This document shows positions 1-27,772 of a stretch of DNA of 28,268 nt, piece after piece. The stretch is taken from the UHGV virus genome UHGV-0093355; one strand, written 5' to 3'. Under the pieces are notes generated by a model. That model did no database searches. It was not told the origin of the DNA and saw nothing but the letters and a program-made list of their open reading frames with translations. This stretch comes from a virus. A program made the position numbers and the translations under genes. Within the stretch, counting starts at the first letter, position 1; each line of letters opens with the position of its first letter.

Positions 1-370
1 AGAAAAGAAAAGGTGGAGTCAGAACAGGATGAAAGTCGGAGGATAAAAAGTCAGTTCAAGTATGGAGGATTCAGTGGTTACCACCAGGAGCTTGCAATGG
101 GGACAGTGAATGTTAACGGTAGCCACCGGTAAATTTCAAAAAAGAGCATATACCTAATATTCAACTAAACAGTGGCATCTTCACTATCTTATTCTAAATA
201 TATTAAAGCCCTCATGGGGGTACCTGGGCAGGGCTTCATGTCTGTAATTCCTACTTATGTAGGAAATGTTGTACAGAACATTTATTATAATCCTATTCAA
301 ATATAATAATCAGCCATTATTATATTTAAACACTAGAGAGTGTCGTTGGTATTTAATGGGGAAAGGTGAG

Positions 371-688
371 ATGAAAAAGATAGCTGCTATATCATTAATT
401 AGTATTTTTATTATGTCTGGTTGTGCTGTGCATAATGATGAGACAAGTATCGGTAAATTTGGTCTTGCATATAAAAGTAATATTCAGCGTAAACTCGATA
501 ACCAATACTACACCGAAGCCGAAGCTTCTTTAGCCAGGGGCAGAATATCTGGTGCAGAAAATATAGTAAAAAATGATGCAGCTCATTTCTGTGTTACTCA
601 GGGCAAAAAAATGCAGATAGTTGACCTGAAGACAGAAGGTGCAGGATTACATGGCGTCGCTCGTCTGACATTCAAATGTGGAGAGTGA
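371..688 (+). CDS. Small putative lipoprotein (host flank), 105 aa
   Basis: ATG at 371 preceded by AAAGGTGAG; N-terminus MKKIAAISLISIFIMSGC has a signal peptide plus lipobox-like MSGC. The longer ORF from 266 has no convincing RBS. Family not recognised. Confidence 0.5.
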   Translation: MKKIAAISLISIFIMSGCAVHNDETSIGKFGLAYKSNIQRKLDNQYYTEAEASLARGRISGAENIVKNDAAHFCVTQGKKMQIVDLKTEGAGLHGVARLTFKCGE

Positions 689-963: not shown

Positions 964-1977
964 TTACTCTACTGTGGACACTGTGTGGACACTCTCGGCC
1001 TCAGTACCACCTCTTAGCGGATTAAGAGAAATGGCGTCCTGAAGGTACTCTGGCGCAAAATGAGCGTAAACCATAGTTTGCTCAATCCGCGTGTGACCTA
1101 GTATCCGTTGTAGCGTGATAATACTTCCTCCATTAATCATGAAATGAGTGGCAAAGCTGTGCCTTAGTGCATGTGTGGCTTGCCCCATTGGCAAATCCGG
1201 TTTTATTGCTTTCATTGTTCGTCTGAAGCGAGGGTAATCAGCATCAGGGAATAAAAAACCTCGTTTGTTATCCGCGATCATTTTGGCAACAGCCTCTGAG
1301 ATCGGGACGGTGCGTGGTTTGTTTGTTTTCGTTTTAACAAACGTGACGCGGTTATGGATGATATTTTCTGCTTTCAAACGAGCTGCTTCTCCCCAACGTG
1401 CTCCAGTACTCAGGCAAAGAATCGCAATCTTTTTGTTGTCGCCGTCAAGAGCAGCAAGCAGTAAGGCAATTTCTTCCTGCGTGAGATAGCCTGTGTCTGG
1501 TTTTTCCTCCTTAAGCCTTTTTGTCCCTCTGATAGGGTGCTCACCAAAGAATAACTCCGCTTCAATCAGGGCTGTAAACATGCCGCTAATACATGTTAAA
1601 TCACGATTGATACTCGAAGGTTTAATACCCTGACTTCTTCGGGTGGCGCAGTACTGGCTGATAAGCGATTTCGTAATTTGAAATGCGCATGGGTCATTCG
1701 TTATTTTTGTGAAGATTTCAATTTTTCCAAGATTAGATTTCCCATGCTCTTCGTGTTTACCCTTTAAATCCCACCAGATCTGTGTCAGCTCCGACAGACG
1801 TCGCTTGTCTGTTGGTTTTGATAGCCATTCTTTATTGTGGTGGTTGTACAACGTGTATTTCTCGAAAGCGACAGCTTCGCTTTTCTTATCAAACTTCCTA
1901 CGGATGCGTTTTCCATTACGTCCAGTAGGGCGGATGTCCACTTCATATCGACCATCATCGAGTTTTTTGATTGCCAT
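964..1977 (-). CDS. int: Tyrosine integrase, 337 aa (P2 Int-like)
   Basis: C-terminal catalytic region HALRHSFATHF...LGH...VYAH, typical of tyrosine recombinases; N-terminus MAIKKLDDGRYEVDIRPTGRNGKRIRRKF and length 337 aa match P2 Int; adjacent to att core. Confidence 0.95.
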   Translation of the reverse strand: MAIKKLDDGRYEVDIRPTGRNGKRIRRKFDKKSEAVAFEKYTLYNHHNKEWLSKPTDKRRLSELTQIWWDLKGKHEEHGKSNLGKIEIFTKITNDPCAFQITKSLISQYCATRRSQGIKPSSINRDLTCISGMFTALIEAELFFGEHPIRGTKRLKEEKPDTGYLTQEEIALLLAALDGDNKKIAILCLSTGARWGEAARLKAENIIHNRVTFVKTKTNKPRTVPISEAVAKMIADNKRGFLFPDADYPRFRRTMKAIKPDLPMGQATHALRHSFATHFMINGGSIITLQRILGHTRIEQTMVYAHFAPEYLQDAISLNPLRGGTEAESVHTVSTVE

Positions 1978-2092: not shown

Positions 2093-2392
2093 TTAACCAG
2101 TCTTTTGACCGGAGTGGGGCGACGTTGTTTCGTTTTGCCCAAAGTGTGCGAGAGCGGGCGCAATTTGCCCGGACTCAGGAGCGATCTGATTGGTCATGAA
2201 CCATAAAGTGTATTTGGTGAATTGTGGGGTCTGCAGGATGTTCATCATGACATCTGTTGGAGGTGTTGAACGACCACTTTCATAGTAACTCAGCGTGCCA
2301 TACGGAACCCCTGTTAAATCAGCAAGTTGTTGTCTGCTCAAATACTCTGATTTTCGCATTAAGACTATCTTCTCGCTTATCGTGTTTGACAT
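2093..2392 (-). CDS. C: Immunity repressor, 99 aa (P2 C-like)
   Basis: 99-aa protein with HTH segment LSRQQLADLTGVPYGTLSYYESG; divergent from cox; position between int and cox as in P2. Confidence 0.9.
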   Translation of the reverse strand: MSNTISEKIVLMRKSEYLSRQQLADLTGVPYGTLSYYESGRSTPPTDVMMNILQTPQFTKYTLWFMTNQIAPESGQIAPALAHFGQNETTSPHSGQKTG

Positions 2393-2782: not shown

Positions 2783-2792
2783 GGAGAACCGT

Positions 2793-2963
2793 ATGAATGA
2801 GCCTCGTTGTATTGCTCAGTTACTGCGTAACGAAAGCCCCAGGGCGATTGACTTCACCATCACCCACGGTAAGGGGCGTAAGGGAATCATTATCCGCACC
2901 AAAAAACAGAGTCCGTTAAAAAAGGCTCTGACCTTTCTGAAAAGCCGGAGGGTATGGAAATGA
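2793..2963 (+). CDS. Small early protein, 56 aa (P2 orf78 position)
   Basis: ATG at 2793 with AAGGAG at 2781-2786; start chosen over the upstream ATG at 2769. Position only. Confidence 0.4.
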   Translation: MNEPRCIAQLLRNESPRAIDFTITHGKGRKGIIIRTKKQSPLKKALTFLKSRRVWK

Positions 2964-3460
2964 CAGTGATGACGCTCAATCTCGTTGAAAAACAGCCAGC
3001 AGCTATGCGCCGGATAATTGGTAAGCATCTTGCCGTTCCTCGCTGGCAGGATACATGTGATTATTATAATCAGATGATGGAGCGCGAACGGTTAACGGTT
3101 TGCTTCCATGCTCAGTTAAAACAGCGTCACGCAACGATGTGTTTTGAAGAAATGAACGACGTCGAACGTGAACGACTGGTATGTGCAATTGATGAATTGC
3201 GTGGTGCATTCTCAAAACGCCGTCAGGTTGGCGCAAGTGAGTATGCATATATTAGTTTTTTAACAGTCAGTCAGCGTCGTACTTTATTTATGCATGCCGG
3301 ATTGACTGAAAAAGAATTCAACCAGCCATACTGGCGAATTAATGAAGAGTCATGTTACTGGCGTGATGCTTTATTCCGTGCATTACGTGAATTATTCAGT
3401 CTGTTTGAGTATGCACCGACAATTCTGACGTCGGTAAAACCGGAGCAATATCTGCATTAA
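2954..3460 (+). CDS. Early replication-region protein, 168 aa (P2 gpB position)
   Basis: GGAGG at 2947-2951 before ATG 2954; size and position correspond to P2 B. Assignment is positional. Confidence 0.55.
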   Translation: MEMTVMTLNLVEKQPAAMRRIIGKHLAVPRWQDTCDYYNQMMERERLTVCFHAQLKQRHATMCFEEMNDVERERLVCAIDELRGAFSKRRQVGASEYAYISFLTVSQRRTLFMHAGLTEKEFNQPYWRINEESCYWRDALFRALRELFSLFEYAPTILTSVKPEQYLH

Positions 3461-3523
3461 GTAATTAACCAGAGTTTTTAACGTACTTAATTGTGCGGGG
3501 CTTCTTTTTGCCTGGAGAAAGTT

Positions 3524-3748
3524 ATGCATACAGTTTCTGAAAATCAGTGCGGTATATACGCATTACTGCTGCAACAGGCCAGAACCGAAGCACAGGCCGA
3601 CGCTGCGACGCGCTTTTCTTCTCATCTTGATGCCATGATTCGCCACATCACAAAGGCGGAGTTATCCCGCGTGGAGATAGTCGAGCTGCTCAGTCAGGAG
3701 TCGGAAAAATTTCACAATATCGGATTGTCTCGCGGGGAGGTGCTTTGA
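3524..3748 (+). CDS. Small early hypothetical protein, 74 aa
   Basis: GGAGAAA at 3514-3519 before ATG 3524; stop overlaps the next start (TGATG). Confidence 0.5.
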
Positions 3749-4047
3749 TGTCCTGTTCTCATTCAGTTGTATTACTGAATAACGCCTTAAAAATCGCCGT
3801 TATGAAAAATGGCGATTTGTCTCTTATTCAACTTTGTCTTGATAAAGAAAAACGCGACATCACTGAATCTGTTATCGCGATTTATCAGAATGAATTAAAC
3901 CTCCTGTCTGATGTGGTCAATTTACTTGTTAAACGCGCTGTATTCCACAAGCAAATTTCCTCAGTGGATGAACTGACAAAATTAACGACAGTACTTGCCA
4001 GTTATTGCGCTGATGTATCCAGGAAACTTAACGATAAAAGGAGCTGA
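3748..4047 (+). CDS. Small early hypothetical protein, 99 aa
   Basis: GGGGAGG at 3734-3740 before ATG 3748; translationally coupled to the upstream ORF. Confidence 0.5.
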   Translation: MSCSHSVVLLNNALKIAVMKNGDLSLIQLCLDKEKRDITESVIAIYQNELNLLSDVVNLLVKRAVFHKQISSVDELTKLTTVLASYCADVSRKLNDKRS

Positions 4048-4049
4048 TA

Positions 4050-4274
4050 ATGCCGGACAACATAGATTTTATTCAGGAACAACAGGCTGAATTACTGGAG
4101 CGCCAGATTAACGCGGCAAGGGTAAAACATTGCGGTGCTTCTGCGCTGGTTTGCGAAGAGTGTGACGCGCCAATACCTGCTGCCCGTCGTGCGGCTTACC
4201 CGTCAGCCACGCGTTGTGTTTCCTGTCAGTCAGTCTTTGAAGCAAAAAACAAACATTACCGGAGAACGGCATGA
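4050..4274 (+). CDS. TraR/DksA-family C4 zinc-finger protein, 74 aa
   Basis: Four Cys arranged C-x7-C-x2-C ... C-x2-C (CGASALVCEECD...CVSC); AAGGAG-like RBS before ATG 4050; occupies P2 orf82 position. Confidence 0.7.
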   Translation: MPDNIDFIQEQQAELLERQINAARVKHCGASALVCEECDAPIPAARRAAYPSATRCVSCQSVFEAKNKHYRRTA

Positions 4275-4552
4275 GTATTCGTATTGAAATTGGCGAGCGT
4301 TATGTCGTCACAAATGACCGTTTTCAGTTCATTTTGCAGGAGAGAAAGACCGCTGAAACCGGGAAGAATGCCGGTAAAGAGTGGCTGGATGTTGTCGGCT
4401 ATTACCCCAAATTAAACCAGCTCGTTTCCGGTCTGATCCATCACGATATTTTGAGCGGTAACGCTGTCTCTTTTGAGGCGCTGAGCTCTCAGGTTGAGCA
4501 GCTCGGTCAGCAGTGTCTGACTGCGTTTCTCTGTGCGGGGAAATCTAAATGA
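4271..4552 (+). CDS. Small early hypothetical protein, 93 aa
   Basis: GGAG at 4261-4264 before ATG 4271; ATGA overlaps with both neighbours. Confidence 0.5.
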   Translation: MSIRIEIGERYVVTNDRFQFILQERKTAETGKNAGKEWLDVVGYYPKLNQLVSGLIHHDILSGNAVSFEALSSQVEQLGQQCLTAFLCAGKSK

Positions 4553-5556
4553 TAGTTGATACCCGCTGCCGAGCTGAAAGCTCTATCAATATTATTTCTG
4601 TTTCTGGCGGAAAGGATAGCCTTGCTCAATGGCTTGTTGGTATTGAAAGCGGTGTGCATTTTTTGCCGGTTTTTGCAGACACCGGGCATGAGCATCCGCA
4701 GACAATGGAGTATCTCGATTATCTGGAGAACCGACTCGGGCCGGTTAAACGGGTTAAAGCTGACTTCTCCCGACAGATTGAAGGTAAGCGCAAGTTTATT
4801 GCTGAGAAATGGCCTGTTTCTCTGGTTGAAGAGTGCGGAATGTCTCCGGGGGAAGCGGCAGAGCGCATCAATTGTGCGCTGGAAATTCTCAAGCCTACTG
4901 GTATCCCATTTCTTGATTTGTGCATGTGGAAAGGGCGATTTCCTTCCACTAAAGCCAGATTTTGCACTTTTGACCTTAAACATGAGCCAGTACGTACTCA
5001 GGTCGTGTTACCTGCGCTTAATGAGTTTGATGAGGTAATTAGCTGGCAGGGGATTCGCGCTCAGGAGTCTCCTGCGCGCGCGGGTCTGCCTGCCTGGGAA
5101 GAGGATGCGGACAATACGCCCGGGCTCCATGTATACCGTCCTATTCTGAACTGGACGCATGAGGAGGTATTTGCATTTGCAAGACGTCATGGAATTAAAC
5201 CTAATCCGTTATACCAGCAGGGATGCAGTCGTGTCGGTTGTATGCCCTGCATCCACGCCAGAAAGTCTGAATTAGCTGAAATTTTTAGTCGCTGGCCGGA
5301 AGAGGTTAAGCGTGTTGCGGAATGGGAGCGACTTGTCGCCGCATGCTCCAGACGCGGAAATTCTACTTTCTTCCCGTCAACTCATGACCCGCGTCGTGCG
5401 GAACGCCGCATTGATATTATTACTGTCGATGCTTACGGAATTGAGTCTTATCGTGACTGGGCGATGACCACGCGTGGCGGGGCACAGTTTGATTTGCTGG
5501 CTTCGGTGAATGATAAGTCAGTTTGCAGTAGTGTCTATGCCGGTGTATGTGAATGA
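4549..5556 (+). CDS. PAPS-reductase-like (PP-loop) protein, 335 aa
   Basis: N-terminal SGGKDS motif (nt 4603-4620) typical of the PAPS reductase / PP-loop family; C-terminal Cys cluster CSRVGCMPC; ATGA start/stop overlaps at 4549 and 5553 couple it to the flanking genes. Confidence 0.8.
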   Translation: MIVDTRCRAESSINIISVSGGKDSLAQWLVGIESGVHFLPVFADTGHEHPQTMEYLDYLENRLGPVKRVKADFSRQIEGKRKFIAEKWPVSLVEECGMSPGEAAERINCALEILKPTGIPFLDLCMWKGRFPSTKARFCTFDLKHEPVRTQVVLPALNEFDEVISWQGIRAQESPARAGLPAWEEDADNTPGLHVYRPILNWTHEEVFAFARRHGIKPNPLYQQGCSRVGCMPCIHARKSELAEIFSRWPEEVKRVAEWERLVAACSRRGNSTFFPSTHDPRRAERRIDIITVDAYGIESYRDWAMTTRGGAQFDLLASVNDKSVCSSVYAGVCE

Positions 5557-7826
5557 GTCATTCTTTCCAGGAGCAATACACCTGCGTACCTCCGTCAGCA
5601 TTTGCTGCAGGCACCGGTAAGGCGTTTACCGGTGCTTATGCATGGAACGCGCCACGCGAGGCCGTCGGGCGCGAAAGACCCCTTACACGTGACGAGATGC
5701 GTCAGGTGCAAGGTGTTTTATCCACGATTAACCGCCTGCCTTACTTTTTGCGCTCGCTGTTTACTTCACGCTATGACTACATCCGGCGCAATAAAAGCCC
5801 GGTGCACGGGTTTTATTTCCTCACATCTACTTTTCAGCGTCGTTTATGGCCGCGCATTGAGCGCGTGAATCAGCGCCATGAAATGAACACCGACGCGTCG
5901 TTGCTGTTTCTGGCAGAGCGTGACCATTATGCGCGTCTGCCGGGGATGAATGACAAGGAACTGAAAAAGTTTGCCGCCCGTATCTCATCGCAGCTTTTCA
6001 TGATGTATGAGGAACTCTGCGATGCCTGGGTGGATGCCCATGGCGAAAAAGAATCGCTGTTTACGGATGAGGCGCAGGCTCACCTGTATGGTCATGTTGC
6101 TGGCGCTGCACGTGCTTTCAATATTTCCCCGCTTTACTGGAAAAAATACCGTAAAGGACAGATGACCACGAGGCAGGCATATTCTGCCATTGCCCGTCTG
6201 TTTAACGATGAGTGGTGGACTCATCAGCTTAAAGGCCAGCGTATGCGCTGGCATGAGGCGTTACTGATTGCTGTCGGGGAGGTCAATAAAGACCGTTCTC
6301 CTTATGCCAGTAAACATGCCATTCGTGATGTGCGTGCACGCCGCCAGGCAAATCTGGAATTTCTTAAATCGTGTGACCTTGAAAACAGGGAAACCGGCGA
6401 GCGCATCGACCTTATCAGTAAGGTGATGGGCAGTATTTCTAATCCTGAAATTCGCCGGATGGAGCTGATGAACACCATTGCCGGTATTGAGCGTTACGCC
6501 GCCGCAGAGGGTGATGTGGGGATGTTTATCACGCTGACCGCGCCGTCAAAGTATCACCCGACACGTCAGGTCGGAAAAGGCGAAAGTAAAACCGTTCAGC
6601 TTAATCACGGCTGGAACGATGAGGCATTTAATCCAAAGGATGCGCAGCGTTATCTCTGCCGTATCTGGAGCCTGATGCGCACGGCATTCAAGGATAATGA
6701 TTTACAGGTCTACGGTTTGCGAGTCGTCGAGCCACACCACGACGGAACGCCGCACTGGCATATGATGCTTTTTTGTAATCCACGCCAGCGTAACCAGATT
6801 ATTGAAATCATGCGTCGCTACGCGCTCAAAGAGGATGGCGACGAAAGAGGAGCTGCGCGAAACCGTTTTCAGGCAAAACACCTTAACCGGGGCGGTGCTG
6901 CAGGGTATATCGCGAAATACATCTCAAAAAACATCGATGGCTATGCACTGGATGGTCAGCTCGATAACGATACCGGCAGGCCGCTGAAAGACACTGCCGC
7001 GGCTGTTACCGCATGGGCGTCAACGTGGCGCATTCCGCAATTTAAAACGGTTGGCCTGCCGACAATGGGGGCTTACCGTGAACTACGCAAATTGCCTCGC
7101 GGCGTCAGCATTGCTGATGAGTTTGACGAGCGCGTCGAGGCTGCACGCGCCGCCGCAGACAGTGGTGATTTTGCGTTGTATATCAGCGCGCAGGGCGGGG
7201 CAAATGTCCCGCGCGATTGTCAGACTGTCAGGGTCGCCCGTAGCCCGTCGGATGACGTTAACGAGTACGAGGAAGAAGTCGAGAGAGTGGTCGGCATTTA
7301 CGCGCCGCATCTCGGCGCGCGTCATATTCATATCACCAGAACGACGGACTGGCGCATTGTTCCGAAAGTGCCGGTCGTTGAGCCTTTGACTTTAAAAAGC
7401 GGCATCGCCGCGCCTCGGAGTCCTGTCAATAACTGTGGAAAGCTCACCGGTGGTGATACTTCGTTACCGGCTCCCACACCTTCTGAACACGCCGCAGCAG
7501 TGCTTAATCTGGTTGATGACGGTGTTATCGAATGGAATGACACGGAGGTCGTGAGGGCGCTCAGGGGCGCATTAAAACACGACCTGAGAACACCAAACCG
7601 TCAGCAAAGAAACGGAAGCCCGTTAAAACCACATGAAATTGCACCATCGGCCAGATTGACCCGGTCTGAACGATTGCAAATCACCCGTATCCGTGTTGAC
7701 CTTGCTCAGAACGGTATCAGGCCGCAGCGATGGGAGCTTGAGGCGTTGGCGCGCGGGGCAACAGTAATTTATGAAGGTGAGCGGTTTAGTTATGCTGTAA
7801 AAGACGATTGGGTGATGTTTTCTTAA
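5553..7826 (+). CDS. A: Rolling-circle replication initiation endonuclease, 757 aa (P2 gpA-like)
   Basis: Conserved HxH metal motif (PHWHMM) and active-site tyrosine region AGYIAKYISKN; N-terminal region recognised as P2 A-like; position at end of early operon. Confidence 0.9.
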   Translation: MSHSFQEQYTCVPPSAFAAGTGKAFTGAYAWNAPREAVGRERPLTRDEMRQVQGVLSTINRLPYFLRSLFTSRYDYIRRNKSPVHGFYFLTSTFQRRLWPRIERVNQRHEMNTDASLLFLAERDHYARLPGMNDKELKKFAARISSQLFMMYEELCDAWVDAHGEKESLFTDEAQAHLYGHVAGAARAFNISPLYWKKYRKGQMTTRQAYSAIARLFNDEWWTHQLKGQRMRWHEALLIAVGEVNKDRSPYASKHAIRDVRARRQANLEFLKSCDLENRETGERIDLISKVMGSISNPEIRRMELMNTIAGIERYAAAEGDVGMFITLTAPSKYHPTRQVGKGESKTVQLNHGWNDEAFNPKDAQRYLCRIWSLMRTAFKDNDLQVYGLRVVEPHHDGTPHWHMMLFCNPRQRNQIIEIMRRYALKEDGDERGAARNRFQAKHLNRGGAAGYIAKYISKNIDGYALDGQLDNDTGRPLKDTAAAVTAWASTWRIPQFKTVGLPTMGAYRELRKLPRGVSIADEFDERVEAARAAADSGDFALYISAQGGANVPRDCQTVRVARSPSDDVNEYEEEVERVVGIYAPHLGARHIHITRTTDWRIVPKVPVVEPLTLKSGIAAPRSPVNNCGKLTGGDTSLPAPTPSEHAAAVLNLVDDGVIEWNDTEVVRALRGALKHDLRTPNRQQRNGSPLKPHEIAPSARLTRSERLQITRIRVDLAQNGIRPQRWELEALARGATVIYEGERFSYAVKDDWVMFS

Positions 7827-7909: not shown

Positions 7910-9232
7910 ATGAGTGCGTTAAGGGATGAAGTATCTATGAAGGTTGCGTTCTCTAATGGCATGATAAACAAATTATGCAAAAGTTTTTTTTATAGTCATG
8001 GTAAGGAGCAGCCTTGTATTCAAGTCGGTAAAGCATTAGAAGATTTTGTTTTTTGGCTTGCATATAATGATGAGGAGATTGCAAAATGTGCTAGTAGGTT
8101 ATTAAAAGCATATGGCCCCCAATTAGGTATAAGTGACCTTCACAATGCGAAAAGATTATTGTTAGGTTTTTGTTCTGAAGCCTTCAATCGCATTGATGCT
8201 GATTTTCTGTCGCTTAATCCTGATAAGATTTGTGTTGATGATATTATAACGCAAGTTCATAGAAAAAATCTTAGTGAGATGTTTAAGTATTATATACTTT
8301 CACGAATAAAATTATGTCCATATATTTATAATCTTGGGTGTGCTGGCTTTGATGGGAAGCTTGAGCTTAGAGAAAATTTATTTTTATATGGCCCGGGGTT
8401 AGGGGTGGAATTACTTTCTGATATTAAAGACAAAACTGACATCAAGGTTCCTGTTGATTTTTATGATGATGAATATATGCGGCATAAACCAATTGGGAAG
8501 TATTTTCGACAGTCAAAATCCTGCTTGGTGGTGGCATATGCTTCATCAGAGGATAAAGCGGTGAAAATGTTTGATAGTTTGTTTGGAGCTTTATGTCTTG
8601 CAGTTGATAATCCTTTTGCGATTAATCGAGTTGCTGTTAATAATCTAGTTGAGTCTTTTGGTGTCGGGAAATATCATGAAAGTGAGTTTCGGGTGAATAT
8701 TCCGTCTGTATATAATTTAAATATAACGGATTCAGCCTTGGCGATACTTACAAAAATACTTTCATCACCTGATAAAAGGATGTTGTCTGCTCTTTCCTTT
8801 ATAGCGCACGGGTGGAGGGATGACAAACGTGAAAGGTTTTTGAATCAATTTATAGCATTGGATGCTATGTATGGAACCAATAATGGTAATAAAAATTCAA
8901 TTATTGGCGGTGTTTGCAGAGATGCGGCGAAAATTATTGATATTGATTCAAAAATAGGAATAATCTATGAGCTTAGGTGTAAGTTTGTTCATGGAGATAT
9001 TTCATCGTTATCTGATAATGATGGCTATCGAAAGTTTATTGATAGCTATGGCGTAGACCCTATTGTTTCTCTTTTTGAAATTCTTAAAGAATGCGTCCTT
9101 AATTATAATGGTACTTACAAAACGCCAAAAGATGTTGGAAAGGCAGATAGGTCTATTTGCGTTCCTGCTGAGTTGCTTCCAGCGGTTGAGAGGATGATAG
9201 CGGAATACAGTGGAGTTAAAAAAACAAACTAA
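7910..9232 (+). CDS. Cargo protein of unknown function, 440 aa (tin/old position)
   Basis: Single long ORF with AAGGA RBS before ATG 7910; strongly AT-rich compared with flanking A and Q; no Walker A motif, so not Old-like. Confidence 0.7.
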   Translation: MSALRDEVSMKVAFSNGMINKLCKSFFYSHGKEQPCIQVGKALEDFVFWLAYNDEEIAKCASRLLKAYGPQLGISDLHNAKRLLLGFCSEAFNRIDADFLSLNPDKICVDDIITQVHRKNLSEMFKYYILSRIKLCPYIYNLGCAGFDGKLELRENLFLYGPGLGVELLSDIKDKTDIKVPVDFYDDEYMRHKPIGKYFRQSKSCLVVAYASSEDKAVKMFDSLFGALCLAVDNPFAINRVAVNNLVESFGVGKYHESEFRVNIPSVYNLNITDSALAILTKILSSPDKRMLSALSFIAHGWRDDKRERFLNQFIALDAMYGTNNGNKNSIIGGVCRDAAKIIDIDSKIGIIYELRCKFVHGDISSLSDNDGYRKFIDSYGVDPIVSLFEILKECVLNYNGTYKTPKDVGKADRSICVPAELLPAVERMIAEYSGVKKTN

Positions 9233-9562: not shown

Positions 9563-10597
9563 TCAGCCGTTGTCTGTGTCCAGTGAGTAGTTTTTAAAGC
9601 GGATGACCTCCTGACCGAGCCAGCCGTTTATTTCCCGAATCCTGTCCTGTAACGGGATAAGCTCATTGCGGACAAAGACCTTTGCCACTTTCTCAATATC
9701 ACCCAGCGACCCGACGTTCTCCGGCTTGCCACCCATCAACTGAAAGGGGATGCGGTGCGCGTCCAGCAGGTCAGCGGCGCTGGCTTTTTTGATATTAAAA
9801 AAATCGTCCTTCGTTGCCACTTCACTGAGCGGGATAATTTTAATGCCGTCGGCTTTCCCCTGTGGGGCATAGAGAAACAGATTTTTAAAGTTATTGCGGC
9901 CTTTCGACTTCACCATGTTTTCGCGAAGCATTTCGATATCGTTGCGATCCTGCACGGCATCGGTGACGTACATGATGTATCCAGCATGTGCGCCATTTTC
10001 GTAATACTTGCGGCGGAACAGCGTGGCCGACTCATTCAGCCAGGCAGAGTTAAGGGCGCTGAGATATTCCGGCAGGCCGTACAGCTCCTGATTAATATCC
10101 GGCTCCAGCAGGTGAAACACGGAGCCGGGCGTGAAGGCTGTCGGCTCGTTGAAGGACGGCACCCACCAGTAAACATCCTCCTCCACGCCACGGCGGGTAT
10201 ATTTTGCCGGTGAGGTTTCCAGTCTGATGACCTTACCGGTGGTGCTGTAACGCTTTTCCAGAAACGCATTACCGAACACCAGAAAATCCAGCACAAAGCG
10301 GCTGAAATCCTGCTGGGAAAGCCACGGGTGCGGAATAAACGTTGAAGCCAGAATATTACGTTTGACGTAAATCGGTGAGCTGTGATGTACGGCAGCACGC
10401 AGGCTTTTTGCCAGACCGGTAAAGCTGACCGGTGGCTCATACCATCTGCCGTTACTGATGCACTCGACGTAATCCAGAATGTCACGGCGGTCGAGTACCG
10501 GCACCGGCTCACCAAAGGTGAATGCCTCCATTTTCGGGGCGCTGGCGGTCATTGTTTTCACCGCTGACTGCGGTGTTTTCCCTTTTTTCTTGCTCAT
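9563..10597 (-). CDS. Q: Portal protein, 344 aa (P2 gpQ-like)
   Basis: 344 aa, sequence recognised as P2 Q-like; leftward orientation next to cos and terminase. Confidence 0.95.
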   Translation of the reverse strand: MSKKKGKTPQSAVKTMTASAPKMEAFTFGEPVPVLDRRDILDYVECISNGRWYEPPVSFTGLAKSLRAAVHHSSPIYVKRNILASTFIPHPWLSQQDFSRFVLDFLVFGNAFLEKRYSTTGKVIRLETSPAKYTRRGVEEDVYWWVPSFNEPTAFTPGSVFHLLEPDINQELYGLPEYLSALNSAWLNESATLFRRKYYENGAHAGYIMYVTDAVQDRNDIEMLRENMVKSKGRNNFKNLFLYAPQGKADGIKIIPLSEVATKDDFFNIKKASAADLLDAHRIPFQLMGGKPENVGSLGDIEKVAKVFVRNELIPLQDRIREINGWLGQEVIRFKNYSLDTDNG

Positions 10598-18814: not shown

Positions 18815-19600
18815 TTATGAGTGGTTTTTATTTGATGCTTTGTATTCTAAAACCTTCTTATTGGCGTAAAAGAATTTTGTATATGACAGGAATATAACCA
18901 GACCTGAAGTGAAATAGACGAGGGATAGTATTAATAATGCTTTTTTGTGACTGTTATTATCTTTAATCTCCTGGCTTAACCATTCGGAGTCCTCCTCGTT
19001 TAGCTGTAAGAGCTTATTGCAGGCGATCTCAGGAAGTGTGTCTTTTATAAATACGTTTTGCAGTCTCTTGCAATCGGCAAGGCTATAAGTTTTATTGAAT
19101 TCAACTGTTTTATTGTTGAAGGATAAAAGAACTTTGTCACTATAAACATAGTACATCATATTTTTATATGGTATGCCTATGGCATCTCTTACTATAGCGG
19201 ATTGTTTGTTGTGTATATAACATGCGAAGAGAATATAAATAATACTGGACAGAATTACAATTATTGTTTTAATTATGTGTGGTGGTTTTGTTATGTCACC
19301 CCAGAAGCGAGTAAGAAAAAAATACGATGTTTTTAGTTTTCCATCAATCAGCCCCTGCTGTATCATTCTCACATCTTCGATGCCTGATACATTGATTCCG
19401 TTAAGTATTTTAAATAGTTGAATGTCGCGCCACTCGCGGTCCAGTCTTTTTAATTTTTTGTCTGAATATCCAAATTTGAAATAATGTGCAATAAGCCTCA
19501 TAAGGTTACTTTTACCAAAGCTAAAAAATGCTAATACTGCAAAGACCAAAAGATACAAAACGATTAGCTCCCACACATTAGTCACATTATAGCTGACCAT
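18815..19600 (-). CDS. Multi-pass membrane protein of unknown function, 261 aa (P2 orf30 position)
   Basis: AAGGAG RBS 6 nt before the ATG; AT-rich; three strongly hydrophobic segments (N-terminal, central, C-terminal); opposite strand to the late operons. Confidence 0.7.
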   Translation of the reverse strand: MVSYNVTNVWELIVLYLLVFAVLAFFSFGKSNLMRLIAHYFKFGYSDKKLKRLDREWRDIQLFKILNGINVSGIEDVRMIQQGLIDGKLKTSYFFLTRFWGDITKPPHIIKTIIVILSSIIYILFACYIHNKQSAIVRDAIGIPYKNMMYYVYSDKVLLSFNNKTVEFNKTYSLADCKRLQNVFIKDTLPEIACNKLLQLNEEDSEWLSQEIKDNNSHKKALLILSLVYFTSGLVIFLSYTKFFYANKKVLEYKASNKNHS

Positions 19601-19683
19601 TACGCTCTCCTTGAATGTTGTCTGGTGGTTCTACAAATGAATCCAGATAGCATAACTTTTATATATTGTGCAATCTCACATGC

Positions 19684-20319
19684 ATGGACACTCTCGCAAA
19701 TATTCAGGAACTCGCGCGCGCACTGCGCAACATGATTCGTACCGGCATTATCGTTGAAACCGACCTTAACGCCGGTCGCTGCCGTGTGCAGACCGGTGGC
19801 ATGTGCACCGACTGGTTGCAGTGGCTGACTCATCGTGCTGGGCGTTCGCGCGCATGGTGGGCACCTTCCGTGGGGGAACAGGTGCTGATTCTGGCTGTGG
19901 GCGGTGAACTCGACACGGCGTTCGTTCTGCCGGGGATTTATTCCGGCGATAACCCCGCGCCGTCTGCGTCGGCGGATGCCCTGCATATCCGTTTCCCTGA
20001 CGGGGCGGTGATTGAGTATGAACCCGAAACCAGTGCACTCACGGTAAGCGGAATTAAAACGGCCAGCGTGACGGCTTCTGATTCTGTTACTGCCACGGTG
20101 CCGGTGGTCATGGTGAAAGCATCAACCCGCGTCACCCTGGACACACCGGAGGTGGTCTGCACCAACAGGCTGATTACCGGCACGCTGGAAGTGCAGAAGG
20201 GCGGGACGATGCGCGGCAACATTGAACACACCGGCGGTGAACTCTCATCAAACGGTAAGGTACTGCATACCCATAAACACCCCGGCGACAGCGGCGGCAC
20301 AACCGGGAGTCCTTTATGA
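19684..20319 (+). CDS. V: Baseplate spike/assembly protein V, 211 aa
   Basis: Start at MDTLANIQELARAL (19684); 211 aa; recognised as P2 V-like. Confidence 0.9.
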   Translation: MDTLANIQELARALRNMIRTGIIVETDLNAGRCRVQTGGMCTDWLQWLTHRAGRSRAWWAPSVGEQVLILAVGGELDTAFVLPGIYSGDNPAPSASADALHIRFPDGAVIEYEPETSALTVSGIKTASVTASDSVTATVPVVMVKASTRVTLDTPEVVCTNRLITGTLEVQKGGTMRGNIEHTGGELSSNGKVLHTHKHPGDSGGTTGSPL

Positions 20320-24803: not shown

Positions 24804-25345
24804 GTTGTATGAGCTCTAGTGTGAGCTTACATATCTATGGCACAGAGTAAAGACTAATCTGACAGTCCGCTCTGTGCCAAAAGCGGTTCTTGCCTGAAGG
24901 CTCTGCCAGCTCGTTATTGCCCCATTCCGTGTTTTGGCTCGTTAGCTCAATCAAAAAATCCCACTCCTGCTGCCATACAAATTCTTATCTATTTGCCTAT
25001 GTTTGCCTTATCAGAAATCGACTAATAATGTATGGGTATACCGTCATGCTTAAATTTAGGTGTTTTTGTATGATTTTAACACAGAATTAGTGCGCGCCAA
25101 TTCCATTCGAAATGTATAAAAATCTATAAAATCAATTAACTATAGGTTCTTGATTTTAGTTAATAGGTTTGAAAAACGCGCCTGCGCGTTTTTCAAGATA
25201 GTGTATTTGGCAAAAAGATGATAACATATTTGCATACAAATAGTTAACCGTGCGCGTTTTTACTGGTCTAACGAAGTAAATGTGCATCCGCACGAATAAA
25301 ATATTAGGCCTATACAACACACAGCCATCACTATCGGGAATAAAT

Positions 25346-26785
25346 ATGACAGACAGGAAAACAGTAGCCGTAGTTGATGCTGGTCACCTCGTTTCACCAA
25401 TCGGTGAACTCAATGAGCAATTAGAGTGGTATCTCGTAAACGTTGGGCTCCCTGTTAATGATGTTGTTGCACCAATTGCTGAAAGAAAAAAGGTCATTGC
25501 ACAACTCGCTGATGCTCTGGAAATACTTCCTCACGCTGATCGTGGACAAGCCCACTACTTATCGCGCTTTACGATTGCAATCGCTGCTGGGCTTTTTGAT
25601 GGCGCGCTAAATTATCTTTGGGACGAAACCGTCAGGGCTCTTCGTCGCCAAGTCATTAGCTTTGATATTCAATATTTTTATTCGGTTGCCGAGAAAATCA
25701 GTTCCCGCTACAAGTCGCTTTCAAAGTCAGAAGAAATCGATCAAGTTAGCGAACACGATCTATTGGAGGGGTGCCGCCGAATAGGGTTGGTAACTGATGT
25801 TAACTATCAACGACTAGAGCATGTTAACTACATGCGCAATCATGCAAGTGCTGCACATCCAAACGACAACGAAATCGATGGCTACGAAATGCTTGGGTGG
25901 CTAACGGCATGTCTTAAACATGCCATCACCGCAGAGCCAGACCATTCTCTAATTTCCATCAAGCAACTTCTCCAGAACATTCGTACGGTAGCCATTCCAA
26001 GTGGTGACTTTTCCGTAATCTGTTCTGATTTGGCAAAACAACCGCAAGAGCGGATTGATGACTTCCTCTGGACGTTATTTGGTATCTACACGGATGATAA
26101 ATCTGCTCAGCATGCAAGAGATAATATTGAAGGCATTAGTCCAGCCGTCTGGGTTGCTGCAACCGAAGATAGAAAATACGAAATTGGTGCCCGGTTTGGA
26201 ATGCTCCGAAAAAATGGACAGGTCGCGAAGAAGGATGCCAGCCAGAAATTCCTGGAAGTGGTGGGTGGTCTCGCATACAAAGATGAAGACAGCCTTGCCG
26301 GCGAATTGATAGAGAAGCTTGAGAACCTCTATCGTGCGCACTTCGGATCAAACAATTTTTATAACGAATATCCTCATGCAAAAGCACTGAATGATAGTTT
26401 GCCCGCTACAGGAAAAATTCCCCGTGCGGCTCGGGCAATGTGGGTCAAGGTAATTTCAATTTGCTATGTCGGCAACGGGCATGGATACAGGCAAGGAGTG
26501 GACGAGCAAGCCCTCCCATATTATCAAGACTACGTAAGTAATTTCACCGAAGGGGAAACGGCCGAATTTATCAAACTTTTCTTTGAACCCGAGTTTGCCA
26601 GCCCGCTATCACGAAGCACCCCAGATAAACGAGCCCGTGATTTGGCAACGCTCCTGAAAGCCAAACACACAAACGTTCATTTACAGCGAGCGCTCGATTT
26701 AATCATTGCAGCCCCCGCGAAGACTTTATATGGTCTTTACAACACTACAGGCTTCAAGAATGTTGTTCCAAATCTTCCAGCTTAA
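25346..26785 (+). CDS. Cargo protein of unknown function, 479 aa (Z/fun position, gene 1)
   Basis: Long ORF in an AT-rich island; start set at ATG 25346 (MTDRK), though ATG 25280 is possible and neither has a strong RBS. Contains an R-N-x5-H motif (about nt 25835-25858). Confidence 0.65.
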   Translation: MTDRKTVAVVDAGHLVSPIGELNEQLEWYLVNVGLPVNDVVAPIAERKKVIAQLADALEILPHADRGQAHYLSRFTIAIAAGLFDGALNYLWDETVRALRRQVISFDIQYFYSVAEKISSRYKSLSKSEEIDQVSEHDLLEGCRRIGLVTDVNYQRLEHVNYMRNHASAAHPNDNEIDGYEMLGWLTACLKHAITAEPDHSLISIKQLLQNIRTVAIPSGDFSVICSDLAKQPQERIDDFLWTLFGIYTDDKSAQHARDNIEGISPAVWVAATEDRKYEIGARFGMLRKNGQVAKKDASQKFLEVVGGLAYKDEDSLAGELIEKLENLYRAHFGSNNFYNEYPHAKALNDSLPATGKIPRAARAMWVKVISICYVGNGHGYRQGVDEQALPYYQDYVSNFTEGETAEFIKLFFEPEFASPLSRSTPDKRARDLATLLKAKHTNVHLQRALDLIIAAPAKTLYGLYNTTGFKNVVPNLPA

Positions 26786-26869: not shown

Positions 26870-27772
26870 TTGAGCGGTATAAAAATAACTTTTGCTTATG
26901 ATAGCAATGGTGTTCGTGTGGATGCTGATTCTTATGGAGCTCTCCCTATAGCTCATCCTCTCGTATGTCCAGATAAAAACTGTGAAGCGTTTTTGAAGCA
27001 TGTGAATGGGTATAAGCGTGAAAGCTACGGCAAACAGCAGTTCATCCCTGCTTTTTACCGATTAGAAAAAGGCTTCGATCATAGTGAGTATTGCCGTTAC
27101 AAATCCTCTGGTAGAGATACAATTGTTGCTGGAGAGTCAGATCATGAAGTTAAAGATGCTCTTGCTAAAGGTGAATTATTGTTTCGTATTCATGTAATGG
27201 ATGCGGAAGAAAAGAAAAAGCTAAAAGATAAGGCAGGGGTCTTTCAACAGTTTCCACCGAATGATACGACTGAGCGGAAATATAGAAACCGAGGACGCAG
27301 ATCTACTTACGTTCGCACGATGAATAGCCTATTGGAAATCTATAATCATGGGCGTCTTAATCCACAAGATAGAGCAAAGATTAGGCTCATAATTGGCGGT
27401 AAGTTAGTAAAGTGGACAGATTTCTTTTACTCGACCAATCACCTAGGTAGTCTAAAATCACGCCTTCATCGTGAGGGAATTGTTCAAGCAGCCGTTGTAG
27501 TTAAAGTAAGTGTTGTAGGACTACCAAATAAAAAACTTAATGGCTTTTGCTTTATAGAGTGTAGCCCCAAGACTACTGGATTAGGTAAACATATATACAC
27601 AACGTTGAAACTAGCTAAGAGCTTCCCAAGTAGTCACTTCACTTTGAATCAAAACGTAATGGTTTTGGGAAAATTTAGCATTCCAGAACCAAGTGCCCGT
27701 GTTACTCCATCATATTTAGGTAATGAAATCAGGACACTAATAACTCACGCACAGCAAGTGGTGGTCATTTAA
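26870..27772 (+). CDS. Cargo protein of unknown function, 300 aa (Z/fun position, gene 2)
   Basis: ORF beginning with TTG at 26870, 5 nt after AAGAGG (26859-26864); co-directional, 84 bp after gene 1; AT-rich; basic (Lys/Arg-rich) central region. Confidence 0.6.
   Translation: MSGIKITFAYDSNGVRVDADSYGALPIAHPLVCPDKNCEAFLKHVNGYKRESYGKQQFIPAFYRLEKGFDHSEYCRYKSSGRDTIVAGESDHEVKDALAKGELLFRIHVMDAEEKKKLKDKAGVFQQFPPNDTTERKYRNRGRRSTYVRTMNSLLEIYNHGRLNPQDRAKIRLIIGGKLVKWTDFFYSTNHLGSLKSRLHREGIVQAAVVVKVSVVGLPNKKLNGFCFIECSPKTTGLGKHIYTTLKLAKSFPSSHFTLNQNVMVLGKFSIPEPSARVTPSYLGNEIRTLITHAQQVVVI

Follow-up and report, generated by a model that had tools for sequence, protein, structure and literature searches.

The gene and its cassette in the replication operon

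The window analysed here is the UHGV virus genome UHGV-0093355, a P2-like prophage of 28,268 nucleotides (nt), and all coordinates refer to this whole stretch. In its early operon, an open reading frame (ORF) for a PP-loop protein of the phosphoadenosine phosphosulfate (PAPS) reductase superfamily lies between a DUF5405 gene resembling P2 orf83 and the gene for the replication initiator gpA (Table 1). The ORF is a real gene whose match to its family is far beyond chance, and it is carried as a discrete accessory cassette in the early (replication) operon. It had been annotated before, and the phage family to which it belongs is known but functionally orphan. The present analysis adds the limits of the cassette, the equivalence of its slot with that of DNA methyltransferases in related phages, the set of conserved residues, including a C-terminal CxSxYGLCE tail, and a clear rejection of the CysH (PAPS reductase) label.

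The ATG of the enzyme gene (4549–4551) overlaps the TGA (4550–4552) of the upstream ORF (4271–4552), and its TGA (5554–5556) overlaps the ATG (5553–5555) of the gpA ORF. An original prediction made from this DNA had placed an ATGA overlap at each end of the ORF (4549–5556), at coordinates that prove correct, and had deduced translational coupling to A. For the orthologue in phage 186 this coupling was already on record, because the 186 entry states that translation of orf84 to its end appears to be necessary for translation of the A protein; the entry also places a terminator, tM1, for untranslated transcripts just inside A. The junction recurs in the 80 closest IMG/VR loci, about half of which have an [AG]TGA junction into an A ORF of 670–890 residues, and the terminus ...YAGVCE is found in 70 of the 80. 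Relative to 186 orf84, the ratio of nonsynonymous to synonymous substitution rates (dN/dS) is 0.046, with synonymous sites saturated, and the enzyme protein is thus under strong purifying selection.

In a blastn comparison with Wphi, the window shows 93% identity as far as position 4504, and identity resumes at 5586 with 96.6%; between these limits, 1081 bp of the window stand in place of 58 bp of Wphi. The cassette holds the complete enzyme gene, together with the 3'-terminal part of the orf83-like gene on one side and codons 1–11 of A on the other. It is 74.7% identical to 186 orf84 at the nucleotide level, whereas its flanks have no meaningful similarity to 186. P2-type A proteins, which are 96–98% identical to that of the window, align only from residue 12 of the window protein, so that the cassette supplies its own start of A as well as its own end of orf83. 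Both ATGA overlaps are preserved. The cassette is absent from P2 and Wphi, in which orf83 leads straight into A with nothing between; P2 Orf83 overlaps A directly, in agreement with the statement in the original prediction that P2 has no such gene at this point. A weak terminator-like hairpin with a 7-bp stem and a T-rich tract (4504–4523, plus strand) lies inside the 3' end of the orf83-like gene and coincides exactly with the left cassette junction.

Among 13 Peduoviridae records inspected, in every case where A is immediately preceded by a large gene that overlaps its start, that gene encodes either this enzyme (186 and P37) or a DNA methyltransferase. The slot contains a DNA methyltransferase in Klebsiella ST13-OXA48phi12.1 and Klebsiella ST512-KPC3phi13.2, a Dam-type adenine methylase followed by a C5 methyltransferase in Salmonella SEN5, and a C5 methyltransferase in Salmonella SW3. 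Some 186-type phages have no orf84-type gene.

At the DNA level the enzyme gene has an exact counterpart (100% identity) in Yersinia phage P37 and a nearly exact one (99.8%) in an entry titled 'Peduovirus P2'; in each case the annotation is phosphoadenosine phosphosulfate reductase. The gene is present at 73% nucleotide identity or more in 67 of 5426 complete E. coli genomes; all of these copies are chromosomal and annotated likewise. The protein is 82% identical to phage 186 Orf84 (CP84, NP_052288) over residues 2–335. Since the identity extends over the full length, and since both genes lie between a DUF5405 gene and A with start and stop codons that overlap those of their neighbours, the two belong to one orthologue group. 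No biochemical or genetic characterization of the subfamily was found in the literature searched.

Table 1. Features of the enzyme locus, with their positions in the window and the basis of each assignment
Feature	Position	Strand	Basis
Cassette in the P2/Wphi backbone, 1081 bp	4505–5585	+	blastn blocks, A protein alignments, P2 and Wphi maps
ORF of PAPS-reductase-superfamily PP-loop protein, 335 residues, orthologue of phage 186 Orf84	4549–5556	+	ORF call, Pfam, PHROG, 186 record
Upstream DUF5405 / P2 orf83-like gene, 93 residues	4271–4552	+	Pfam, PHROG, P2 and Wphi maps
Replication initiator gpA (Phage_GPA), 757 residues	5553–7826	+	Pfam, protein alignment
ATGA start/stop overlap of enzyme gene with upstream DUF5405 gene	4549–4552	+	Sequence
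ATGA stop/start overlap of enzyme gene with gene A	5553–5556	+	Sequence; recurrent [AG]TGA junction; note in 186 record
PP-loop SGGKDS, residues 19–24	4603–4620	+	89–95% conserved in family
DTGHE, residues 44–48, equivalent of nucleotide-binding 'LDTG'	4678–4692	+	Family alignment, profile comparison
F-C139-T-x-x-L-K144-x-E-P147	4963–4989	+	C139 and K144 invariant; register with APS reductase C-C-x3-K-x2-P probable
G168-x-R170-x-x-E173-S174-x-x-R177 loop, equivalent to CysH GLRREQSxxR	5050–5079	+	Alignments
R228-V-G-C231-M-P-C234, with CxxC aligned to APS reductase Fe-S ligands	5230–5250	+	Alignments
C-terminal tail C326-S-S-V-Y-A-G-V-C334-E335, consensus CxSxYGLCE	5524–5553	+	Family alignment

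Over positions 2792–7777 the window is 97.9% identical to P37. The integrase (964–1977, minus strand) and the C-type repressor (2093–2392, minus strand) share with P37 only short stretches that are 72–80% identical; the window is therefore mosaic, its integration and immunity module differing from that of P37. Two paralogous DUF5405 genes on the plus strand, at 3745–4047 (P2 orf81-like) and 4271–4552 (orf83-like), flank a TraR/DksA zinc-finger gene at 4050–4274; the PHROG label for their family is 'replication initiation protein'.

Protein family, motifs and fold

Pfam assigns residues 15–236 to PF01507 (PAPS_reduct) with 123.6 bits (E-value 1.1e-35), above the gathering threshold of 22.5 bits, and the protein belongs to the phage 'PAPS reductase' families PHROG 15238 (E-value 1.2e-87) and PHROG 424 (E-value 9.3e-85), the match to phrog_424 covering only positions 150–420 of the 460-position profile. 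A search of a library of 1.8 billion proteins matched 3071 cluster representatives below an E-value of 1e-3; below 1e-30 there were 351, counted as 50%-identity clusters. The AlphaFold2 model has a mean predicted local distance difference test score (pLDDT) of 95.7 and a predicted template modelling score (pTM) of 0.92.

In an alignment of 118 relatives with identities of 36–54%, residues C139, K144, N219, L221, Y222, V229 and C231 are invariant. Conserved to at least 90% are S19, G21, D23 and S24 of the PP-loop, D44 and E48, the loop residues G168, R170, E173, S174 and R177, and C234, G332 and C334, the two cysteines reaching 97%. C125 and C326 are conserved to about 80%. The CxSxYGLCE consensus tail ends exactly at the C terminus of the family proteins. 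The original prediction had drawn attention to SGGKDS and to a cysteine cluster, CSRVGCMPC (residues 226–234); both are present, but C226 is conserved to only 7% and falls away as a member of the cluster.

C231 and C234 align with the iron-sulfur (Fe-S) CxxC of the adenosine phosphosulfate (APS) reductases of M. tuberculosis and P. aeruginosa, and the family register C-[TS]-x3-K-x2-P resembles the C-C-x3-K-x2-P of APS reductase. Comparison by hhalign with a partial M. tuberculosis APS reductase confirmed the alignment of the CxxC and stopped short of the CC region, so that the equivalence of C139 rests on motif register.

In the fold comparison with CysH, DndC and other PP-loop enzymes that had been proposed earlier, the best structural matches found by Foldseek are APS and PAPS reductases; the curated cut-offs for CysH and DndC are missed. 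Other structural and profile matches are the N-transferases GMP synthase, NAD synthetase, TilS, QueC and Cap9. No structure of DndC, SspD or BrxP was matched in the PDB, and the BFVD structure search returned only distant PAPS-like matches. The best matches in the PADLOC defence library are SspD (E-value 3.5e-22), BrxP (1.8e-15) and DndC (8e-7); these are partial, linking residues 126–263 of the query to SspD and 132–257 to BrxP.

Scores against the curated models of PAPS reductase CysH are 66.4 versus a cut-off of 154 (NF002537, PRK02090), 45.7 versus 165.1 (TIGR00434) and 41.7 versus 254.2 (TIGR02057); the assimilatory APS reductase model TIGR02055 gives 55.3 versus 235.3, and the DndC model TIGR03183 gives 22.3 bits versus 290.4 and aligns with residues 132–212 only. 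The catalytic motif of CysH, ECGLH, is missing, the enzyme ending in ...VCSSVYAGVCE and E. coli CysH in ...KRECGLHEG, and the loop that reads SGGKDS in the enzyme is the degenerate SSSFGIQ in the CysH of E. coli and Vibrio. A protein of the YbdN/IbrA type was also considered and rejected, there being no DUF3440 match in the enzyme and no adjacent ParB gene in the window. No DUF4007 fusion was seen among the Pfam matches of the enzyme or in the scan of linked genes.

Judged by these scores and motifs, the enzyme is not a genuine CysH or APS reductase, and the family appears to be a separate, uncharacterized branch that joins the Fe-S site of APS reductase to an ATP loop like that of adenylating PP-loop enzymes. 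The known protein for which such a pairing of Fe-S site and ATP loop is reported is DndC. The class proposed in the original prediction, a PP-loop ATP pyrophosphatase or sulfur-transfer enzyme, is supported by Pfam, by the conserved motifs and by the non-CysH scores. For this large subfamily the name 'PAPS reductase' is misleading: it lacks the defining residues of CysH and conserves those of an ATP-dependent Fe-S sulfurtransferase. A 270-residue chain designated 'PptA' (PDB 21fy_C) gave a weak profile match (E-value 1.7e-6) to the NPLY-CxxC region of the family that is not interpretable, and no literature was found for it.

Genomic context and possible function

Unrelated temperate phages and prophages carry homologues at 42–55% identity in their early operons, where several of these lie close to DNA methyltransferase genes and often overlap them. 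The homologue of Burkholderia phage phiE125 has an overlapping C5 methyltransferase gene upstream and a ParB helix-turn-helix protein downstream, that of Agrobacterium phage Rivra has methyltransferases on both sides, those of Stenotrophomonas phage S1 and Serratia phage Parlo have a methylase two genes away, and that of a metagenomic phage (L089) is accompanied by three methyltransferases. ParB_N proteins are also neighbours of some homologues of the phage family. When 133 ORFs within two genes on either side of the homologue were scanned at 35 non-redundant IMG/VR loci, obtained with a 14-sequence alignment as the query, the top Pfam families were N6_N4_Mtase (five) and C5 DNA_methylase (four), with one Mom. 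No cysteine desulfurase, DndD/E, SspB/C or BrxC was present in the contexts inspected or among the 25 commonest of the 46 families matched. In Pseudomonas phage Riah and in a Silvimonas prophage, which are unrelated contexts, a DUF4406 gene lies directly downstream of the homologue (L087 4491–5024, L093 5957–6280), and its product may be a functional partner in some lineages.

The enzyme stands alone in the window, throughout which no partner was found in the form of a cysteine desulfurase, DndD/E, SspB/C, ParB or methyltransferase. The unknown cargo ORFs of the window have no Pfam or PADLOC matches, and they are unlikely to be obligate partners because they differ between prophages that share the enzyme gene. 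Few plasmids carry a full-length member (14 records). A much more distant gene of the PAPS reductase family, of a different subfamily and about 29% identical over residues 132–269, occurs in 1488 plasmid records, of which 1114 are conjugative; on many plasmids of Enterobacterales its location is constant, close to the beginning of the record (for example NC_009139.1, 3905–4336).

The reading that we favour, tentatively, is that the enzyme may be a stand-alone, ATP-dependent, Fe-S-assisted sulfurtransferase that acts on nucleic acid and is carried as epigenetic or anti-restriction cargo. Ribosomes would run from orf83 into the enzyme gene and from the enzyme gene into A. Using ATP, the enzyme would adenylate an oxygen on its nucleic-acid substrate with release of pyrophosphate, and sulfur would then replace the adenylated oxygen by way of an Fe-S cluster, a persulfide on the C-terminal cysteines or both. 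The C-terminal tail is flexible and bears two cysteines, the sulfur would probably come from host IscS, and the chemistry would be that of TtuA/TtcA and DndC. Replicating phage DNA would be the most likely substrate, making the enzyme the epigenetic or anti-restriction equivalent of the DNA methyltransferases that occupy the same slot in sister phages. What the data show directly is the fold, the motifs, the structure of the cassette, the geometry of the coupling and the genomic context; binding of an Fe-S cluster, use of ATP, sulfur chemistry, a DNA substrate and a protective role are inferred.

DNA modification and anti-restriction had already been suggested in the original prediction, and the suggestion stands in part: it gains contextual support from the methyltransferases in the slot and near homologues, but the 186 orthologue is recorded as being of 'unknown function; not essential'. 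That entry is one of several points that weigh against the sulfurtransferase proposal. At most three of the four cluster cysteines of APS reductase appear to be kept, C139 being counted by motif register; position 140 is Thr or Ser, and no fourth ligand was identified. The insert (residues 74–135) and the C-terminal domain (residues 237–335) have no match among solved structures in the PDB; no recognizable DNA-binding domain was found in the protein, and its overall isoelectric point is 6.3, only the 62-residue helical insert being mildly basic. In none of the contexts examined was there a DndA/D/E, SspA/B/C, BrxC/Z/L or DUF4007 partner, and the adjacency of methyltransferases may merely mark a region of early accessory genes. 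All characterized DNA phosphorothioation systems depend on a P-loop nucleoside triphosphatase (NTPase) together with a partner that recognizes DNA, and phosphorothioate was absent from isolates in which a PAPS-domain gene occurs alone (PMC12914056). The possibilities that follow are a modification of another kind, reliance on partners from the host, RNA as the target, or a reaction that does not involve sulfur. In favour of the proposal, a PAPS-Dam fusion of a Vibrio phage, together with a neighbouring gene, has anti-Dnd activity (bioRxiv 10.1101/2021.05.05.442762; Piel et al. 2022), which maps to the two genes jointly and not to the PAPS domain alone (bioRxiv 10.1101/2021.05.05.442762), and Aca-regulated phage PAPS reductases have been proposed as DNA-modifying anti-defence genes (PMC13551039).

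A more specific version, in which a single polypeptide would combine ATP adenylation with an Fe-S cluster and a persulfide relay at its C terminus to put a sulfur-containing mark on replicating phage DNA, is doubtful. A thiolated base is one candidate for the mark; another is a phosphorothioate whose synthesis bypasses the NTPase and DNA-recognition subunits on which Dnd, Ssp and BREX type 4 all depend. If true, natural DNA modification would have a new pathway or a new type.

The other explanations differ in the substrate, the chemistry or the need for any activity at all. It is unlikely that the enzyme depends for its action on a host phosphorothioation system (Dnd, Ssp or BREX type 4), whether by joining it as a substitute for DndC or SspD that borrows the host NTPase and DNA-recognition subunits so that phage DNA is phosphorothioated quickly, or by opposing it as a decoy to titrate those subunits. 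SspD, BrxP and DndC are indeed the best matches in the defence library, a phage PAPS-domain gene has been linked to anti-Dnd activity, and known phosphorothioation needs an NTPase that the phage does not supply; the matches, however, cover only the core (residues 126–263, with DndC scoring far below its cut-off), and the anti-Dnd protein is built differently, as a fusion of Dam with a short PAPS domain. The family, moreover, is very widespread, including the 67 E. coli genomes, whereas Dnd and Ssp are sporadic in the hosts. Thiolation of RNA, most likely tRNA, by an enzyme of the TtcA/TtuA/NcsA type that alters host or phage RNA, for example for resistance to anticodon nucleases or for tuning of translation in lytic growth, is quite unlikely. 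We regard as similarly improbable an adenylation that serves a non-sulfur substitution, namely amidation or amination of a nucleotide, a DNA base or a small-molecule signal in the manner of TilS, QueC, GMP synthase or Cap9, with the cysteines having a structural or redox-regulatory role. The many N-transferases among the structural matches are consistent with such a reaction, as is the DUF4406 gene directly downstream in two unrelated contexts, its product being, we assume, like a nucleoside deoxyribosyltransferase. The invariant cysteines, however, coincide with the Fe-S ligands of APS reductase and are joined by an invariant C-terminal cysteine tail, a combination that marks sulfur-handling members, and no glutaminase or amidotransferase partner was seen in the contexts inspected.

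That the gene encodes a genuine sulfonucleotide (APS or PAPS) reductase, and as an auxiliary metabolic gene raises the sulfate assimilation of the host during infection, is very improbable. The database name, the PF01507 match, the best structural matches and the APS-reductase-like CxxC and C-terminal cysteine all point that way, but the scores lie far under every curated cut-off, SGGKDS is kept in its canonical form and ECGLH is missing, the phage enzyme has about 150 extra residues, the gene sits in a replication operon, and E. coli already has cysH. Least credible is that the ORF is mainly a translated leader that brings ribosomes to A and prevents premature termination, any enzyme activity being incidental. 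The need for translation through the end of orf84 and the site of tM1, both from the 186 record, and the conserved [AG]TGA junction would suit a leader; against it, P2 and Wphi couple A through orf83 alone, some 186-type phages dispense with the gene, the protein is under strong purifying selection, and the catalytic motifs are kept in hundreds of phages that have no A gene.

'PAPS reductase' (cysH) is among the commonest of phage gene labels and is routinely taken to denote an auxiliary gene of sulfur metabolism; some of the literature reads it in this way, and another source merely flags the gene as deserving study. The gene is present in two classic lineages of model phages, that of 186 and that of P2-like phages such as P37. 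If the enzyme modifies DNA, a new counter-defence chemistry would be added; if the gene has no detectable effect, it would be an ordinary, already annotated accessory gene.

Other cargo in the window and comparison with known systems

An ORF of 440 residues (7910–9232, plus strand) with 35% G+C, compared with 50% for the window, lies between A and the portal gene Q (9563–10597, minus strand), at the tin/old hotspot of P2. It has a full-length match to phrog_23812 (unknown function) and no Pfam, NCBIfam or PADLOC match, and it is a candidate for an unknown defence gene. At the same hotspot, prophages that share the enzyme gene have other cargo: P37 has an ASCH and a C5 methyltransferase gene, and the E. 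coli G8 prophage has a C5 methyltransferase and a BbrUII/HgiDII restriction enzyme. Two plus-strand ORFs (25280–26785, 501 residues, and 26870–27772, 300 residues) follow the tail-fibre genes, at what we take to be the Z/fun hotspot of P2; they have no Pfam or PADLOC match and may be a two-gene defence cargo. Two adjacent ORFs on the minus strand (18815–19600, 261 residues, and 19600–19986, 128 residues), also without a Pfam or PADLOC match, lie inside the otherwise plus-strand late tail and baseplate region, presumably at the position of P2 orf30. Just beyond the integrase, an ORF at 266–688 (plus strand) has an internal Met followed by a lipoprotein-type signal (MKKIAAISLISIFIMSGC...) and no Pfam or PADLOC match; it may represent either a moron at the end of the prophage or host DNA adjoining it.

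With respect to known systems, phage 186 Orf84 occupies the same slot between a DUF5405 gene and A, with the same 4-nt overlaps, but its flanking DNA is of the 186 type whereas that of the window is of the P2 type; its record says only that it is not essential and is needed in cis for translation of A. The APS reductases (P. aeruginosa 2GOY, M. tuberculosis 7LHR) and CysH (1SUR, 6VPU) have a degenerate PP-loop, which in APS reductase reads SFSGAED, in contrast to the canonical SGGKDS of the phage enzyme. The latter has, judged by register, only one Cys of the CC pair, lacks ECG[LI]H and has, in addition, a helical insert of about 60 residues and a C-terminal domain of 100 residues. DndC, SspD and BrxP resemble the phage enzyme in having a PP-loop ATP pyrophosphatase and cysteines in a PAPS reductase fold, but only their core aligns with it, and the phage enzyme is stand-alone and phage-borne. 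The [4Fe-4S]-dependent tRNA thiolases TtuA, TtcA and NcsA are more distant than the sulfonucleotide reductases and act on RNA; they have a different arrangement of cysteines, and zinc fingers. E. coli YbdN shares the PAPS_reduct core and SGGKDS and has a ParB-like partner, YbdM, a type to which IbrA/IbrB presumably also belongs; it is only 27% identical to the phage enzyme over 113 residues, lacks C139 and the CxxC cysteines and has a DUF3440 C terminus. The Vibrio phage PAPS-Dam fusion is likewise a phage protein with a PAPS reductase domain that is tied to a DNA methyltransferase. It differs from the phage enzyme in that it is a fusion of 479 residues with a short PAPS domain (residues 4–175) followed by Dam, an arrangement that leaves no place for the C-terminal domain or for the CxSxYGLCE tail.

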